Made by a program: the position numbers and the translations under genes. From positions 352,001 through 416,000 of the forward strand of contig CM000433.1 in NCBI GenBank assembly GCA_000165345.1: 64,000 nucleotides of DNA, given 5' to 3'. Shown here piece after piece: positions 31,036-60,887 of this stretch; the stretch's first letter is position 1, and every line of letters begins with the position of its first letter. The notes under the pieces were generated by a model. That model saw only the letters and a program-made list of their open reading frames with translations, was not told the DNA's origin and ran no database searches.

Positions 31036-33168
31036 ATGAACATTCAATCACAAATAAAAGAAATTAACTCTATTGATAAAAATAGTTTGTCATATTTAAT
31101 AAACTCGAAAAGTACTTTGAATGGTATATATCATGGCATTGAAAGTAATTACTTTGCTGGCCATGAAAGTATATTGAACAATAATTCAGCTAACATGAGG
31201 CAGTGCCAAAATATAGAAAGACGATGTGAAAATGAGGTTTGGCTCACATTACCACTATTTTTTCCAAGCGCGACTTTACATAATGTAACTCATCAACGCA
31301 GAGACCTGTTTTGTGAATCAAATGGTGGTAGCTTATGTTTTTCTCCTGAAGAAACTAACACCTCCAGGTTATTTTCAACTATTCAAGGACTCTCAGATAT
31401 TGGTGCAGGTTTTTTTCAGATTGTAATTGCAAAACTTAAAGGAGTTGTTGCTGAAAATGTTGAAGCGATAAAAAGCGAGTTTGAAAGAATATTTAAGAAT
31501 GAAGATTCAGCATTTAATGGATTTATTCCTTTAAAGCCTATTGGATGGAGGAAAAGAAGCTTCTCTAAAGAAAATTCCACAATCCTATTAGAGTCTAATG
31601 AAATAATAATTGACGCTTTTGCAAAACAAAAATCATATTATAATGCAATTTTGATATCTGAAAATTATACAGAAAGCTGCAAAGAAAATATTATCAAGTT
31701 GGGAAAACTATCAAATAATTTCCTAGAAAAAATTAAATTAATATATCCATCATTAGAGATTGTCAAAGTTTCGGATTTGGAAAAAGATAATTTTTTTGAG
31801 GTAACTATACGAATAAAACCCATGCCTTCATATGTCTCTTCTGAAGGAGAGGATTTTGATCCAAAGGATAAAAAATTTTCTATGTTTCAAAATTTATCAC
31901 AAGTAAACAATTTAACATCAATATATTTAGGCGATATTCGCCTAATAGATCCTTATAAAACTGAAGTGGATCTAAGAATTCCTTGTGGATTATTCAAAAC
32001 TTTTGCGTTAATTTCAAGCCATTCTATTTTCGTGCAATCTAGGTATTGTATGGCAACATATGTTCCATTTTCCCAAAGTCGTAAAAAAAAACTTACTCAA
32101 ACGAGTCATGAAAATGGTACTGAAATAGCTACCATTAATTCAAAGTCAGTCAACTCATCACAAATTTTTGATAGGATTCAATACAAAATATCTACACCAA
32201 AACTATTAACTTTTGGAAATAACAAAGAAACAAGTATAAAAACTCCGCCTCCGAGTAACTTTCCCACAAACAATTCTAACTGCGTTTCAAATATATCCAC
32301 TTGTGACCTGAGCTATAACGCTATATTCAACAGCAACTGGGGAGGGAAAAGCTATTCGTGCACCCCAACAACAAAGGAGTCTCTTAACAAGATTTCATAT
32401 ACTCCGTTTTCTTCGATTGAAATGGATTCTTCGCCATGGTTGAGCGCTGACTTCAATATAGAGCCTAATTCCATATTCTCTTTTGAGCAAGATAACCAAC
32501 AATTGATTCCTCCAAGGATTTCATCTCTAAATTACATGGATAACCTTTGCAATAACGAGAATAATAATCATTCAAATAATAACTCACTCGATACCAACTT
32601 TATTACTGAAAGGCAATTATCATATGACTCAATTAAAAACTTTGAACACAATCATTTACAGGCTACTCAAAAACTTTCAAATAAGAATCAAATCAGTTTC
32701 GTAAAAAGAGCTGAGAAGTGCAATAATATTGAAGTTCAAGAGCCTGTTTTTGGAATTGAACATAATTTGAAGAAAAATCAAACGATAGAAATTGATGATA
32801 AAATCGAGCTTTTAGAATATGAATGCTCTCAATACTTGGAAAGCAAAGATTTTGATATTTTTAACATGTTAGAAAATATTTTTTCAGATAATTCAGCTAC
32901 AAACTTTGAAGATTGTCAAGTTGGATATAGTGATCAATTCAGTGAAAATGAAAATATTAACAGAAATAGCGAATTAGTTGAATCAAAAGTTAATCAATCA
33001 CTTAGTAAAAACTATAGTGAAAAATTTGGCTTGTGGAGTTTTGAATTATACAAAAATTCAAACGCTTGTATTACTAAACCAAACTCGAATCTACATCATA
33101 AAGATAAAACTTCTGAATTTGTGCCAAATGAATTAAACTATCTAAATGAGAAAATACTTTTTGGTTAA
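31036..33168 (+). CDS. Hypothetical N/S-rich protein (710 aa)
   Basis: Long uninterrupted ORF with no recognisable domain. Confidence 0.5.
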   Translation: MNIQSQIKEINSIDKNSLSYLINSKSTLNGIYHGIESNYFAGHESILNNNSANMRQCQNIERRCENEVWLTLPLFFPSATLHNVTHQRRDLFCESNGGSLCFSPEETNTSRLFSTIQGLSDIGAGFFQIVIAKLKGVVAENVEAIKSEFERIFKNEDSAFNGFIPLKPIGWRKRSFSKENSTILLESNEIIIDAFAKQKSYYNAILISENYTESCKENIIKLGKLSNNFLEKIKLIYPSLEIVKVSDLEKDNFFEVTIRIKPMPSYVSSEGEDFDPKDKKFSMFQNLSQVNNLTSIYLGDIRLIDPYKTEVDLRIPCGLFKTFALISSHSIFVQSRYCMATYVPFSQSRKKKLTQTSHENGTEIATINSKSVNSSQIFDRIQYKISTPKLLTFGNNKETSIKTPPPSNFPTNNSNCVSNISTCDLSYNAIFNSNWGGKSYSCTPTTKESLNKISYTPFSSIEMDSSPWLSADFNIEPNSIFSFEQDNQQLIPPRISSLNYMDNLCNNENNNHSNNNSLDTNFITERQLSYDSIKNFEHNHLQATQKLSNKNQISFVKRAEKCNNIEVQEPVFGIEHNLKKNQTIEIDDKIELLEYECSQYLESKDFDIFNMLENIFSDNSATNFEDCQVGYSDQFSENENINRNSELVESKVNQSLSKNYSEKFGLWSFELYKNSNACITKPNSNLHHKDKTSEFVPNELNYLNEKILFG

Positions 33169-51220: not shown

Positions 51221-52998
51221 TTAATACTGTCTTTCAGTACTATGTCTTCTGCTGTTTCCAGGATAGGTACCACTAGCTCCAGAACAAGTAGTAACACCAA
51301 CAATGTTTACGGAGTCCTTTCGTAACAAATTACAATCTGAAAGCCCAGAAATTGAAGGTGCACGATATTTGTTCCCAAAAGCGCCAGCAGTTGAAGATGC
51401 TATCGAGCCGGTCCGCCTACGATTCCAACATCCAGATGTTGCCGTTCCTGTTCCAGGCTCAATAACAGACCCAGTAGACAATACAGAATTATTCCTTTTA
51501 TATCCATCACTTCCCCATATAACGCTATTTAGCGAGCCGAAGCTTGCAATTTCATGTCTTGGCGGGTGTACTTCATACATGCGGTTATGTGCCTCAGTTG
51601 AACACCTCCAGAATTTTCCCTTTATACCGGATTCATATCTTATTCTACAAACTTCAAATTCAAGAGCCCTCCAGTCAATATGATGCCCAGTTCGATGTCT
51701 AACCTCAATAGCTTTTTTTAAGTGAGCTTGTATGGCACCAGTCCAAAGACCTCTATCCATTGAACTGTCGCAGACATGAAAAACGATCGACTTTTGCACA
51801 TCTTCAAATTCTATAGAGAATCTTCTTTTATTATGAGAAAGATCCATCTGTGCCCTAAACAAAATGAGGTTTACACTTCCTCTTGATGCATTTATACCGA
51901 AAAGACGATATGAAGATTCCGAATCAAACCAATACAAATGGCATTCATGCACTACAACATATCTCTTTTGCCATCTAATTGGTGGTACACTAAATTGTCT
52001 ATCTGACTTTTTATATAAGTATCCTAAAAGATTAATAATAAGAAAATCCTCTTATAGTGTTACAACTTACCAAAAATCGGAGGAACTACATTCAACTGTA
52101 GTTTGTTATGAATGTCGCAAACAACCAAGGTTCCTCTAACAAAACGAAGGGATAAATCATCATCAGATAAGTCAGGGTCAGGTCTACTTGTTTCAGATGC
52201 TCCAATAAGTTCGTACATCGCCCTTCTAGCATTAGTTGTATATTGTGGTATATAGCTGTTGTTAGTATCTGAGAAAGGATCAATCATTTCCCTATTATTA
52301 TTTGAATACCAATGTTTGCATCCATCTTGAAATGTATTAATTTTATAGGACTGATCATTGCTATTATAACTATATAGGCCACTACTATTTAACCTGCATG
52401 GGTCCCTTTCCAACAGTGAACATAATAGTTGGTTTGCCTGATAAACATTCATCTTTTTATTTACTAATGGTTGGCTGCTTTTTTTCTCGATTTGATAGCT
52501 AGAATTATTTTTAATATTCGAGGAAGATTTTCTACAATGCAAATATTCAGAATTATTCTCGTCCTTTCCGTAATTACTATTTCTGTCCTTTTGATTATAT
52601 CGATTCTCTATACCCTTATTTGGAAGGTTTTGAACGTACGAAATGCTGAATCTTCTTCTACTCATGTTTTCAGAATTTCCTATAGCGGTATCATTTTTGT
52701 TCTGATGGAGTGTATCAATAGAAGAATGTAAATCTACATTTAATTTATTTGATTCTTCTCTGCCTGAATACTGTTTCTCTTTTTGAACATAGTTAAACTC
52801 TTTTCCTAATGATTCACCTCCTTTCGAATTCCTTTTTAAAGAGTTATTATAGCACACATCTCTTGTGATTTCAAGCATAGACCTACTCAAATACTTTGAA
52901 TCCAACGGGTCTGAATGTGTTAAGAAAGGAGTTAAATTGCCCAATGACCCATCATAAGATGATGAAAGTCCACCAGATGATCTCCTTGAAAAGCTCAT
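51221..52998 (-). CDS. PH-domain-containing protein with an N/S-rich N-terminal half. join(complement(52071..52998), complement(51221..52023))
   Basis: A 47-nt intron (GTAAGTTGTAA...tcttttAG) joins ORFs 52060..52998 and 51221..51952 in frame (phase 1; ...VVPPIFG|YLYKKSDRQFSVPPIRWQKRYVVVHECHLYWFD...). A PH-like segment ends in the amphipathic helix SMDRGLWTGAIQAHLKKAIE. Confidence 0.5.
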
Positions 52999-53351: not shown

Positions 53352-56300
53352 TTACCATCCGAAACCCGAGAACCAGCTAGATTCTTGCCCTCCTGATGGG
53401 GTAGGAGGGGGAGCAGGTGGGGTAGGTTCAGATTGCCCACCTAGCCACCCCCCAAACCATGAAGAATCCTCTGCAGTTTGTGGGGTCGGACTTGGTGTTG
53501 GATTTGAAGGATTTGGAATTTGAAGATTGTTTGTACTAGGATTATTTTGCGTTGGGTTTTCTGTTATGGTTGGGGTAGGAGGAGGAGCGGGAGTTGTTTC
53601 GGATGCCCCAAACCAACCACTAAACCACGAGGACTCCTCTGCAGGAGGTGGAGGTGAAGGTGGAGGTGGACTTGAAGCCAAATTTTCCTTAGCATCTGTA
53701 GGAACTTTTGTTGGCTCTGGGTTTATTGTAGCTGTTGGAGTTGGAGGAGGAGCAGGGGTTGTTTCAGATGCCCCAAACCAACCACTAAACCATGAAGACT
53801 CCTCTGCAGGTGGCTGAGGCTGAGGTTGAGGTTGAGATGTAGGTTGAATCTGAGATGATTGGGGTATAGGTGGACTCGAAGGGGTAGAATCTTTCTTAGG
53901 AGCTTCTTTAGGATTTTTTCTGGGCTTTGGATTTGCTGTTGCAGTTGGAGTTGGGGGAGGAGCAGGGGTTGTTTCAGATGCCCCAAACCAACCACTAAAC
54001 CATGAAGACTCCTCTGCAGGTGGCTGAGGTTGAGGTGGAGTTGAACTTTCCTTGGGAATATCTGTAGGAGTTTTCGTTGGCTCTGGATTTATTGTAGCTG
54101 TTGGAGTTGGAGGAGGAGCAGGGGTTGTTTCAGATGCCCCAAACCAACCACTAAACCATGAAGACTCCTCTGCAGGTGGCTGAGGTTGAGGTGGAGTTGA
54201 ACTTTCCTTGGGAATATCTGTAGGAGTTTTCGTTGGCTCTGGATTTATTGTAGCTGTTGGAGTTGGAGGAGGAGCAGGGGTTGTTTCAGATGCCCCAAAC
54301 CAACCACTAAACCATGAAGACTCTTCTACAGTTGGTTGAGTAGGCTCAGGAGCAGGGGAAATTTTGATGGAAGGAAGCTCATTTATGGGTTTTACAGTAG
54401 CTATATTTTGTTGATTCACTTTGCTTTTTACGGAACTTTTTTTTTTTGCTCCAACATTTTTCATTGCAGGTCTTTCTTTTAAATCGTTTACTTTTGCTGG
54501 TTCCGTGGTTCCACCAAACCAACTACTAAACCAAGATGACTCTTCTACAGGTGCTGGAGTAGGAGGAGGCGGAGGTGGTTGTTCATTTTCTTGTCCAAAC
54601 CCATTCTCTACTATGGTTTGAGTGTTTGCTGAATTATCTATAGGCTCTAAAGGGGGAGGAGGCGACCACTTTGGTTTATCTTTCGGTCTTAAAGTTGGGG
54701 TTGGTGGAGGAGGAGGAGGAGGAGAGCTTTCTGCTCCAATCCCGAACCAACCAGTAAACCAGGAAGTTTCTTGCGCAGGAACAGCTGAGGAAGATGTTTG
54801 AGGTGAATTTTCATGTTCTCTGTTGCCTTCGTTATTAGCTTTTGGAGGTAGTTTGTTTGAAGCCTTCCTCTTTAATTTTTGCTGATTATTTTTAGTTATA
54901 TTTTTTTGTGTTGTCTTTGCTGTTTTAATCTTTGCTTTTGGATTTTCTGGAGTAGTTGAATATCCAAACCAGCCCCAAAATGAGCTTTCCTGTTCGTTTG
55001 TTTCGCATTCCGCCTCTGGTACTGGTCCTTCATCTTTGTTGTAGTTTTCCTCTATTTCCTTTTCTATTTCCAGGTTGTTTTTTTGTGTTGATACATCCTG
55101 ATCTGAAAAATCAATGAAGCTATTTAAATCTATGCTTTCGTCGTCATTCGAAGTTGCTTTAGTGGCTCTTGCATCCGACTTTGAGCTATTATAATATTTT
55201 GTATTGTTTGACTTATTATCAACATAATAACCTTGAGCAAGAGGTGGAGGAGGGGAATTTGCTTGTTTTGCTTTTGGCGAAGAATTGCTATTGACAGCTG
55301 ATTTTTTAATTTGAATCTGATCGTAATTTGCAACTTTTTTATCTAAAGTTTCTTGATTAAAAGTATTATCTTTTTCGATTGGACTAATGTCTTCTTGAAT
55401 TTCATTAGCAGATGAATTATTTCCAAACCAGCTTGAAAACCAGGAGCTGCTTTGATTTTTTGTATCTGACTGCTGTTTTGATGACTTTAAAATCGTTTTC
55501 TTTACCATTTTCAAACTTCCTTGTCGATTTGGATCAAAATTTTCTGCACTATTGTTTGTCTTAGAAATATTTGGGATACTTCTTCTTCCTTTGGCAATTC
55601 TTTGCCCATTCTTTGAACATCTCCTCGTAGTTTGAGTGTTAATTATTCTATCAAATTCATCTTTCCTAATTTTGTCAAGATCTAGTTTCATTCGCATCAT
55701 ATTTCTATGTATTATTGCTCTTTCTAAGCCATTAGATGGAAGCCTCAAGATTTCGTAAAGTCTGCTCACCTTTCTATTTTCTGTGTATTTATTTGTCTCT
55801 AACTCTGAAAAATCAATATTTTTTTCTTGTTCATTGTTATTAGAACATGGTAAATTTTCTTTGATTTTTTGAGGCTTAGTTTTACTAGCCTCTATATTTT
55901 GTGACAAGAGCTTGTTTGTATCTAATAATATATCCTTTAATATTGAGATATCATTTGGTTCAATTGAAAGATTGCAATTCTGAGCATTAGAACTCATATC
56001 TTGCCTTGGAACTCTATCTATCACGCCATATTCTCTCAAAATTGTTTCTATTTGATCTTTTAACAATGCGAAATCATTTGAACAATATATATTATTACTG
56101 TTGCTATTCGCTTTTTCCGAATTTTGTTCATATTTCATATTTTTTGAAAAAGTATTGTTTGCCTCGTTTCTTTCATTTTTTAATTCCATTTTTTTTGATT
56201 TGCTTCTATGACATTTTTTGTAGTGTTTATATTTGTCTTTATGTTTACTCATGTGATTATGCTTGCAACTGGATTTTCTATGTTTCTTTTCCAATTTTGA

Positions 56301-60887: not shown

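Follow-up and report, generated by a model that had tools for sequence, protein, structure and literature searches.

The protein encoded by cgd5_1940 of Cryptosporidium parvum carries in its C-terminal part 11 short motifs of paired tryptophans and phenylalanines, here called WF motifs. From the sequence, we suggest that this part of the protein could be a multivalent acidic-tryptophan docking array on a disordered scaffold, a reading to which we give about even chances. The gene lies on the minus strand at positions 53352 to 60887 of a 64,000-nucleotide stretch of contig CM000433.1 (GCA_000165345.1, positions 352,001 to 416,000). This whole stretch is referred to as the window, and all nucleotide positions are counted within it. 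A preliminary description of the same DNA, which expected an apicomplexan host, was right on this point as well as on the 2,511-residue open reading frame (ORF) with its 11 tryptophan motifs, but the coding strand had to be corrected to minus.

Anatomy and conservation of the WF motifs

The consensus of the WF motifs is [ED]-x-S-W-F-[SG]-[SG]-W-F-G. They are found in the last ~700 residues of the protein (about residues 1811-2511), not in the last ~900 as first proposed. Five copies share the sequence EESSWFSGWFG and the other six deviate from it, so the aromatic octad is not invariant as had been stated. In total, 22 of the 25 tryptophans in the protein sit inside the motifs, the first tryptophan of each being residue 1816, 1971, 2043, 2119, 2192, 2244, 2296, 2366, 2421, 2477 and 2505, and the spacing along the array ranges from 28 to 154 residues. 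In 20,000 composition-preserving shuffles, made with the full-length sequence or with the final 711 residues, the pattern occurred on average 0.003 times and at most once, compared with the 11 occurrences observed. It is absent outside cgd5_1940 in all six frames of the window. The copies are listed below.

55422..55454, minus strand: WF motif 1, QSSSWFSSWFG, residues 1812-1822; an orthologous copy is present in 10 of 10 species examined.
54963..54986, minus strand: WF motif 2, SSFWGWFG, residues 1968-1975, with a shifted W-x-W register (motif scan, alignment).
54741..54773, minus strand: WF motif 3, QETSWFTGWFG, residues 2039-2049, followed by PPPPPTP at 54696-54716 (motif scan, alignment).
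54513..54545, minus strand: WF motif 4, EESSWFSSWFG, residues 2115-2125, preceded by PPPPPTP at 54555-54575 (motif scan, alignment).
54258..54326, minus strand: bipartite unit 5, EESSWFSGWFGASETTPAPPPTP, residues 2188-2210 (motif scan).
54102..54170, minus strand: bipartite unit 6, EESSWFSGWFGASETTPAPPPTP, residues 2240-2262 (motif scan).
53946..54014, minus strand: bipartite unit 7, EESSWFSGWFGASETTPAPPPTP, residues 2292-2314 (motif scan).
53736..53804, minus strand: bipartite unit 8, EESSWFSGWFGASETTPAPPPTP, residues 2362-2384 (motif scan).
53571..53639, minus strand: bipartite unit 9, EESSWFSGWFGASETTPAPPPTP, residues 2417-2439 (motif scan).
53397..53471, minus strand: bipartite unit 10, EDSSWFGGWLGGQSEPTPPAPPPTP, residues 2473-2497, with the WF part EDSSWFGGWLG (motif scan).
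53355..53381, minus strand: WF motif 11, SSWFSGFGW-COOH, residues 2503-2511, at the extreme C-terminus (motif scan, orthologues).

An acidic residue (D or E) is located at most four residues upstream of the motif in 10 of the 11 copies. The acidic residues earlier described before each copy are therefore real, except in copy 1 (QSSSWF). Similarly, the Pro/Thr-rich sequence that was said to follow each copy is seen after copies 3 and 5-10, while the sequence after copies 1, 2 and 4 is N/S/K-rich; the spacer quoted at the time, TPAPPPTPTATINPEPTKTPTDIPKESSTPPQPQPPA, is present, but only with two exact occurrences. In eight of the 11 copies a P[AP]PPP[TS]P segment is found within ~6-10 residues of the WF hook, and the 23 overlapping PPP triplets are all in the C-terminal part. 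A representative 24-mer of the bipartite unit is EESSWFSGWFGASETTPAPPPTPT. The last copy, ESSWFSGFGW followed by the stop, is indeed the extreme C-terminus, as first noted.

Orthologues were recovered from C. hominis, C. tyzzeri, C. meleagridis, chipmunk genotype I, C. canis, C. felis, C. xiaoi, C. ryanae and one Logan assembly. The first four and the last two motifs are at orthologous positions in all of them, and the inter-motif spacing is also conserved (about 147-154, 70-73, 73-77, ..., 54-57 and 27-32 residues). The number of central tandem units varies from 2 to 8 across species, and the total number of motifs from 8 to 14. C. xiaoi and C. ryanae have nine copies and the C-terminal sequence GSSWFSGFGW. 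Most species have SSWFSGFGW as their last nine residues, whereas chipmunk genotype I has SNWLSGFGW there and C. felis has SGWFSGFGW. In the C. meleagridis orthologue (P0004), one repeat unit at residues ~2235-2260 is garbled, with AEGHPKQPLLHLQLQQLHGWFG instead of AEESSWFSGWFG, and the protein ends in GFGC plus a 10-residue extension, not in GFGW and a stop. These deviations are probably due to a frameshift or base error in the assembly and not to biology.

Conservation was quantified by column in the orthologous non-tandem parts of an eight-species alignment, in which the overall identity goes down to ~40%.

WF core columns: mean identity to C. parvum 0.90, invariant 63%.
Adjacent P[AP]PPP[TS]P columns: mean identity to C. 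parvum 0.91, invariant 69%.
All other (spacer) columns: mean identity to C. parvum 0.55, invariant 9%.

The proline segment, previously taken for mere spacer, is thus as conserved as the WF hook, and the conserved unit is bipartite, a WF hook plus P[AP]PPP[TS]P. Within the hook, the serine before the tryptophan and the glycine after the phenylalanine hardly vary, and the residues between the aromatic pairs are always small. In the older copies the same motif serine is encoded by both codon families, AGY and TCN (AGC, AGT, TCC, TCA, TCT, TCG), therefore the identity of the motif has been kept at the protein level and not only by recent copying of DNA. The alignment indicates that the WF motifs are short linear motifs under selection, and the earlier idea of regularly spaced linear motifs gains from the contrast between cores and spacers as well as from the conserved positions and spacing. 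Among the central units, the spacer identity is 0.54 within C. parvum vs 0.35-0.38 between species. These identities show concerted evolution of the spacers around an invariant core of 22-24 residues, EESSWFSGWFG-x-[ST]E-[TA]-TPAPPPTP.

We suggest the following mechanism. Each unit would bind a folded partner domain weakly; (i) the aromatic pairs would enter hydrophobic pockets, (ii) the acidic residues would contact a basic rim of the partner and (iii) the polyproline II segment would either add a second contact or hold the hook out. With 8-14 copies on flexible spacers of ~30-150 residues, the array would gain avidity for an oligomeric or lattice-like partner, and one copy would offer a free carboxylate at the very C-terminus. 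Multiplicity on flexible spacers is a classical route to avidity for such partners, and an acidic residue together with a tryptophan is the signature of several docking systems. A docking motif is favoured over a composition-driven element because the non-aromatic positions are invariant, an acidic residue stands upstream in nearly all copies (10 of 11) and an equally conserved polyproline segment is linked at a near-fixed distance.

Other conserved islands lie among the early WF copies. One of them is basic.

54849..54926, minus strand: basic island KTAKTTQKNITKNNQQKLKRKASNKL, which includes QQKLKRK, residues 1988-2013, between motifs 2 and 3 (alignment).

A reading of this island as a classical nuclear localisation signal was rejected, as K[KR].[KR] is unmatched there. 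The others are SDA[RK]ATKATSN (55146-55178), VKKTILKSSKQQ (55470-55505) and [LI]PSIK[IV] (54354-54377). The islands are likely to be additional linear motifs or modification sites.

A giant disordered carrier protein

The conservation map over the eight species splits the protein into four parts, residues 1-180, 200-1100, 1105-1810 and 1811-2511, of which the last is the array. About 1800 K/N/E-rich residues precede the array, more than the ~1,600 K/N/E-rich residues originally estimated. The features of this upstream region are listed below.

60348..60887, minus strand: N-terminal conserved block, residues 1-180, for which AlphaFold2 (AF2) gives no confident fold (conservation map, eight-species alignment, AF2).
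57588..60290, minus strand: K/N/E/S-rich disordered region, residues 200-1100, poorly conserved (composition; the lowest conservation along the protein).
55458..57575, minus strand: central conserved block, residues 1105-1810, with isolated helices and conserved islands and no globular domain (alignment, AF2).
56190..56504, minus strand: Cys/His/Lys-rich patch, residues 1462-1566 (invariant alignment columns).

The N-terminal block contains the invariant islands NLS[IV]PQEPEL (residues 59-68) and NQI[KR]NRML (residues 84-91). The Cys/His/Lys-rich patch, whose presence was noted before and which spans about residues 1462-1566, holds C-S-C-H-x-C-x2-H, IDPIT-x-HI and PKHYHKHYH, all invariant in the species aligned. 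From these residues it may be a small metal-binding element; AF2 gave no confident structure for the patch.

AF2 models were made for the two best-conserved non-repeat blocks. The central block (residues 1105-1830) has a mean predicted local distance difference test score (pLDDT) of 38 and a predicted template modelling score (pTM) of 0.17, with only isolated helices, and the N-terminal block (residues 1-200) has a mean pLDDT of 51 and a pTM of 0.18. Around WF motif 1 the pLDDT is below 50, with a one-turn helix over WFSSW. A Pfam search with the full protein found no domain at E<=0.01. The disordered scaffold of the preliminary description is consistent with all these results. The last 411 residues contain 24% proline, and the C-terminal third is also rich in serine and threonine. 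There is no signal peptide or transmembrane segment in the protein, the maximum 19-residue Kyte-Doolittle mean being 0.88, and in the alignment the N-terminus is conserved from Met1 and non-hydrophobic. The product is therefore best seen as a very large cytosolic protein that is intrinsically disordered, with conserved islands scattered along it.

This topology bears on the idea that cgd5_1940 encodes a host-directed effector, whose ~52-residue units, like those of EspF and EspFU(TccP), would bind host WW, SH3 or WASP-type proteins. The repeats of the bacterial proteins EspF/EspFU(TccP) engage the host actin-assembly machinery multivalently, and Cryptosporidium builds an actin pedestal under itself. 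The likeness is one of repeat architecture only, a hydrophobic element plus a proline-rich segment. However, an effector of this kind fits poorly with the missing signal peptide and transmembrane segment, the conserved non-hydrophobic N-terminus and the 1800 non-repeat residues before the array. Further, the proline-rich segments are without SH3, WW or EVH1 consensus, and the expression profile (see below) is not obviously that of an invasion-stage gene. We consider this reading very improbable.

The gene, its copy-number variation and its phyletic range

The coding sequence is complete and uninterrupted.

53352..60887, minus strand: complete coding sequence of cgd5_1940, 2511 residues plus stop, in a single uninterrupted ORF (ORF reading).

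On the minus strand this region runs from ATG to stop through 2511 codons with zero internal stops, and Met1 is directly preceded by an in-frame stop. A plus-strand reading was rejected, as that strand is stop-rich throughout. The product is 100% identical to EAK88070.1, a hypothetical protein of C. parvum Iowa II, and the same 2511-residue sequence is found as QOY41626.1 (CPATCC_002198) and in two further NCBI records. In UniRef it is named 'Large low complexity protein with predicted coiled coil regions'. The flanking ORFs encode an Rce1-like CAAX protease and an enolase (Pfam), and the neighbouring enolase is cgd5_1960. Within the cgd5_1940 coding sequence, PMC4637869 reports a deletion/indel of 522 nucleotides, which equals the 174-residue difference between two C. 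parvum isoforms. It is from this difference together with the enolase neighbour that the gene was identified as cgd5_1940. The gene is transcribed: published data (Tandel et al. 2019, PMC6877471, supplement 4) give log2 counts per million of 7.3 for sorted asexual stages, and for females 5.4 in vitro and 7.1 in vivo.

The preliminary description raised the question of an assembly artefact. That the array is a functionless low-complexity repeat, an assembly artefact or a mis-called ORF could be argued from the copy number, which differs between assemblies (2337 vs 2511 residues in C. parvum; 2317/2330 vs 2484 in C. hominis). However, the array is not an artefact of one assembly, because four independent NCBI records, some of them on chromosome-scale contigs of ~1.09 Mb, share the identical 2511-residue protein. 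In addition, an open frame of 7.5 kb in DNA of ~30% GC is conserved in at least 10 species, the six copies outside the tandem repeats are each unique in sequence and use different codons, conservation is far higher in the motif cores than in the spacers, and the gene is transcribed. We regard this explanation as effectively refuted.

The variation in length is concentrated in the central units. In C. parvum, the records have either 2511 residues and 11 motifs or 2337 residues and eight motifs, and in C. hominis either 2484 residues and 11 motifs or 2330 residues and eight motifs, with a third record of 2317 residues. The 174-residue gap between the C. parvum isoforms corresponds to the published 522-nucleotide deletion. 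The most recently homogenised part of the array coincides with the polymorphic zone.

53905..54340, minus strand: tandem repeat of 156 bp (52 residues), 2.8 copies, 94% matches (Tandem Repeats Finder).

The variable central units (window positions 53400-54340, residues ~2190-2440) could be a true polymorphism and typing marker, or else a short-read repeat collapse. The polymorphic array, with 8 vs 11 copies in both C. parvum and C. hominis, is a potential typing locus, and its difference in length, which the preliminary description missed, is at the same time a warning on repeat collapse in short-read assemblies.

A HMMER profile of the central block was searched exhaustively against 1.84 billion cluster representatives. 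It matched six clusters, all from Cryptosporidium. Among these representatives the profile detected no homologue in the gastric species (C. muris, C. andersoni), in gregarines, in coccidians or elsewhere. From these matches, the family looks genus-restricted, or at least restricted to the intestinal clade, although extreme divergence of a disordered protein is possible. An N-terminal profile gave zero matches and also missed the source proteins of the query itself. Against a collection of 5.8 billion proteins a motif-only profile of three tandem copies found three short fragments, but missed Cryptosporidium proteins that score E~1e-33 locally with the same hidden Markov model. The negatives of these two profiles therefore carry no weight.

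The first fragment is a highly acidic bacterial ORF of 78 residues with KSWFSGWFG and KSWLNSWF (E-value 0.017 against the 5.8 billion proteins). It is located downstream of lpxC and directly upstream of a SMC_N/RecN-like gene and uvrC, on the ENA metagenome scaffolds L001 (6001-6237) and L002 (2280-2516). KSWFSGWFG in this ORF is a striking convergent occurrence of the octad. The second fragment is an exon-like ORF with AGWFGGWFGGG, then a K/E-rich stretch, inside a metazoan VPS13 gene (Logan SRR23254142, L003 6001-6246). This exon is flanked by VPS13_N and VPS13_M matches and gives the bridge-like lipid-transfer protein a single WF-pair motif in one of its loops. The third fragment is unplaced. 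A full-text literature search with the motif strings returned no paper, and a PDB sequence search with two repeat units returned only insignificant Pro-rich matches. From these searches the WF consensus looks new, which does not imply that it is exclusive to cgd5_1940, and a new motif family, as proposed in the preliminary description, is plausible.

Diarrhoea due to Cryptosporidium is among the leading causes of death in childhood, about half of the ~3,900 genes of the parasite lack a characterisation, and its cell biology, with no stacked Golgi and a unique host interface, is poorly understood. The function of cgd5_1940 probably sits in ~24 residues, because short motifs are the only strongly constrained features of this 2,500-residue, genus-restricted protein. 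A stretch this short can be made as a synthetic peptide, altered by mutation (W->A) and employed as bait. An interface that is defined, multivalent and specific to the parasite would offer a handle on Cryptosporidium cell biology and perhaps a selective target.

The rest of the window encodes TOG/CLASP, NFACT, Las1, CTP synthase, Gpi1, ESF1, cactin, CCT and an amino-acid transporter. The neighbours in the window are unrelated housekeeping genes, which is normal in a eukaryotic genome, and they do not point to a function. Two further ORFs have no Pfam match, one of 710 residues at 31036-33168 on the plus strand and one of 312 residues at 52060-52998 on the minus strand, the latter being the immediate downstream neighbour of cgd5_1940.

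Comparison with known motif systems

Published consensus patterns were scored on the 11 copies. The pattern W-x(1-6)-[WF] of the δ-COP class fits all 11, in 10 of them with an acidic residue upstream. The Pex14-binding WxxxF/Y fits the C-terminal copy only, and the AP-2 pattern WxxF is likewise found in a single copy. None of the copies contains DP[FW], FxDxF, a clathrin box, a W-box, NPF, an LC3-interacting region (LIR), the tryptophan-acidic motif of kinesin light chain (KLC) or an FFAT motif (two phenylalanines in an acidic tract). FG is present in all 11 copies and GW or WG in nine. Apart from these trivial dipeptides, every aromatic class tested except δ-COP fits at most one copy. SH3, WW, EVH1, TSG101, LIR, KLC and FFAT readings of the unit were rejected for want of a consensus match.

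Several Trp motifs in a disordered region, and the i/i+4 spacing of the aromatics (W-x3-W, F-x3-F), are reminiscent of Pex5. However, W-x3-[FY] is restricted to one cgd5_1940 copy, and C. parvum has no peroxin genes except Pex4 and Pex22 (PMC5755239), hence Pex14 is absent. The likeness to the Ago-hook of GW182/TNRC6, i.e., tryptophan beside glycine or serine in a giant disordered protein, with GW in nine copies, is superficial. In cgd5_1940 the tryptophans are paired with phenylalanine and strictly periodic within the motif, and Dicer and Argonaute genes are undetectable in Cryptosporidium (PMC9465071). The two analogies of the preliminary description are therefore abandoned, as either the consensus does not fit or the receptors are missing.

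Bulky W, F and L residues in a Ser/Gly-rich core are also a feature of amphipathic lipid packing sensor (ALPS) motifs, as in ArfGAP1 and the N-terminus of GMAP-210. SSWFSGWFG could accordingly be a two-turn helix that acts as a very short ALPS-like insertion into lipid-packing defects, which would make the array a vesicle tether or an organelle-surface scaffold with avidity for curved or loosely packed membranes. The core is uncharged inside, and on a 100-degree helical wheel W1, F2, W5 and F6 fall within ~140 degrees with Ser/Gly opposite. SSWFSGWFGAS has a Ser/Gly polar face with bulky hydrophobic residues and few charges, as in ALPS motifs, SSWFGGWLGG resembles the start of the GMAP-210 ALPS, MSSWLGGLGSGLG, and AF2 places a short helix over WFSSW. 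Further, the similar isolated motifs in the VPS13 loop exon and in the bacterial ORF near lpxC are in possibly membrane-proximal contexts. However, ALPS motifs span 20-40 residues and avoid acidic flanks, while the core in cgd5_1940 has 9-11 residues and is bounded by Glu-Glu upstream and E-T-T-P downstream. Anionic membranes would repel these acidic flanks. The Eisenberg hydrophobic moment is low (0.06-0.21), and the position-specific invariance of Ser, Gly and PAPPPTP is unexpected for a composition-driven lipid sensor. Membrane insertion is thus an unlikely function of the array.

In a second alternative, the WF pairs are stickers and the Pro/Thr segments spacers of a cohesive condensate or hydrogel, forming an atypical FG-nucleoporin-like barrier or the scaffold of a membraneless parasite structure. 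The whole protein is disordered, hydrophobic stickers are regularly spaced in polar or Pro-rich sequence, variable copy number is tolerated, and FG occurs in every motif, with 12 FG dipeptides in the last 711 residues (1801-2511). However, FG domains typically have dozens of FG at 10-20 residue spacing, with uncharged, Pro-poor spacers, whereas here only 8-14 stickers stand 28-154 residues apart in sequence that is highly Pro-rich towards the end. Acidic residues are found directly at the stickers, Pfam detects neither a nucleoporin domain nor any other anchor, and PAPPPTP and the non-aromatic positions are conserved more exactly than sticker chemistry needs. Cohesion of this type is improbable, to about the same degree as membrane insertion.

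A docking array has closer counterparts among coat proteins. Endocytic accessory proteins carry such arrays, e.g., 15 DPF in Eps15, DPW in epsin, and WxxF in stonin, synaptojanin and NECAP. In such coat accessories, many short aromatic/acidic motifs in a disordered tail give avidity for appendage or μ-homology domains (e.g., PMC4731787). The tail of cgd5_1940 is similar in its length, its disorder and its many aromatic/acidic motifs, but the endocytic consensus sequences are lacking in the C-terminal region (DP[FW], FxDxF, NPF and clathrin box 0; WxxF in one copy of 11), and AP-2/clathrin/EH patterns including PWxxW have 0-1 matches within the motifs.

The proline segments have a parallel in the PPP templates of COPII, where the Pro-rich region of Sec31 and TANGO1/cTAGE5 bind the gelsolin domain of Sec23. 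In Sec31, the PPP motifs are moreover accompanied by a contact element that contains Trp. The disordered Pro-rich region of cgd5_1940, with its 23 overlapping PPP triplets and eight conserved P[AP]PPP[TS]P segments, is alike. Unlike the COPII templates, it is without a Sec16 central domain, Sec31 WD40/ACE1 or TANGO1 domains (Pfam) and without a folded domain in the AF2 models of the conserved blocks, and its Trp element is a WF pair and not the W-N element of Sec31.

By analogy with these systems, the most likely reader of the docking array would be a vesicle-coat appendage or μ-homology-type domain. The best-fitting precedent is the docking of the Dsl1 lasso and of ArfGAP1/Gcs1 to δ-COP through acidic Trp motifs. 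ArfGAP1 and Gcs1 use the form WxxF, and the Gcs1 motif is reportedly at the extreme C-terminus (Suckling et al. 2015). One cgd5_1940 copy has the same location. In δ-COP ligands (ELM LIG_deltaCOP1_diTrp_1), the Trp-based motifs have negatively charged surroundings and lie in unstructured segments of ArfGAPs and of the Dsl1 tether (PMC7145657, PMC4868844), and C. parvum encodes COPI and COPII, including the δ subunit (PMC6357402). Similarly, cgd5_1940 has two aromatics, at least one of them Trp, 1-6 residues apart, in acidic surroundings of an unstructured region. The Dsl1 lasso has WxW and WxxxW; copy 2 of cgd5_1940 is W-x-W and the others are W-x3-W. From this analogy it can be guessed that cgd5_1940 is a coat-binding organiser or tether of the parasite secretory pathway. 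As the specific partner, COPI/δ-COP is a candidate with a small chance.

Several points weigh against docking, and against δ-COP in particular. The δ-COP pattern matches any two tryptophans within seven residues, so the fit of all 11 copies is weak evidence. The domains of known δ-COP ligands (ArfGAP, Dsl1) were not found by Pfam in cgd5_1940, nor was ZW10 or any other domain, so by its domains the protein is not a COPI life-cycle factor of the ArfGAP or Dsl1 tether type. The PPPTP segment matches no SH3, WW, EVH1 or TSG101 pattern among those tested, the Ser/Gly core with bulky aromatics has the same look as lipid-packing sensors, and the docking partner is purely putative.

The bipartite unit, [ED]-x-S-W-F-[SG]-[SG]-W-F-G ... 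P-A-P-P-P-T-P, could alternatively define a new class of linear motif that has a dedicated reader domain. In that case the protein would be a multivalent organiser, specific to Cryptosporidium, of a process particular to the parasite, e.g., trafficking to or assembly of an unusual secretory or feeder-organelle interface, and not a divergent known coat accessory; avidity would be adjusted between isolates and species through the number of copies. This is less probable than not by a good deal, but it deserves more weight than membrane insertion or cohesion.

The earlier statement that the consensus matches no known system holds for the Pex5, GW182 and endocytic patterns, while the loose δ-COP pattern does cover every copy. 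Aromatic docking-motif arrays in disordered proteins are well known, but the WF consensus, its bipartite form with PAPPPTP, the obligatory C-terminal copy and the domain-less carrier are undescribed in the literature searched. Known δ-COP ligands have 1-3 motifs next to ArfGAP or Dsl1 domains; the cgd5_1940 family has 8-14 copies in a domain-less protein of ~2500 residues. Its consensus is also far tighter than that of the δ-COP class (S-W-F-small-small-W-F-G), with paired phenylalanines and a linked PAPPPTP. This tight consensus, absent from Pfam and from the searched literature, may add a class to the few Trp-based docking motifs.

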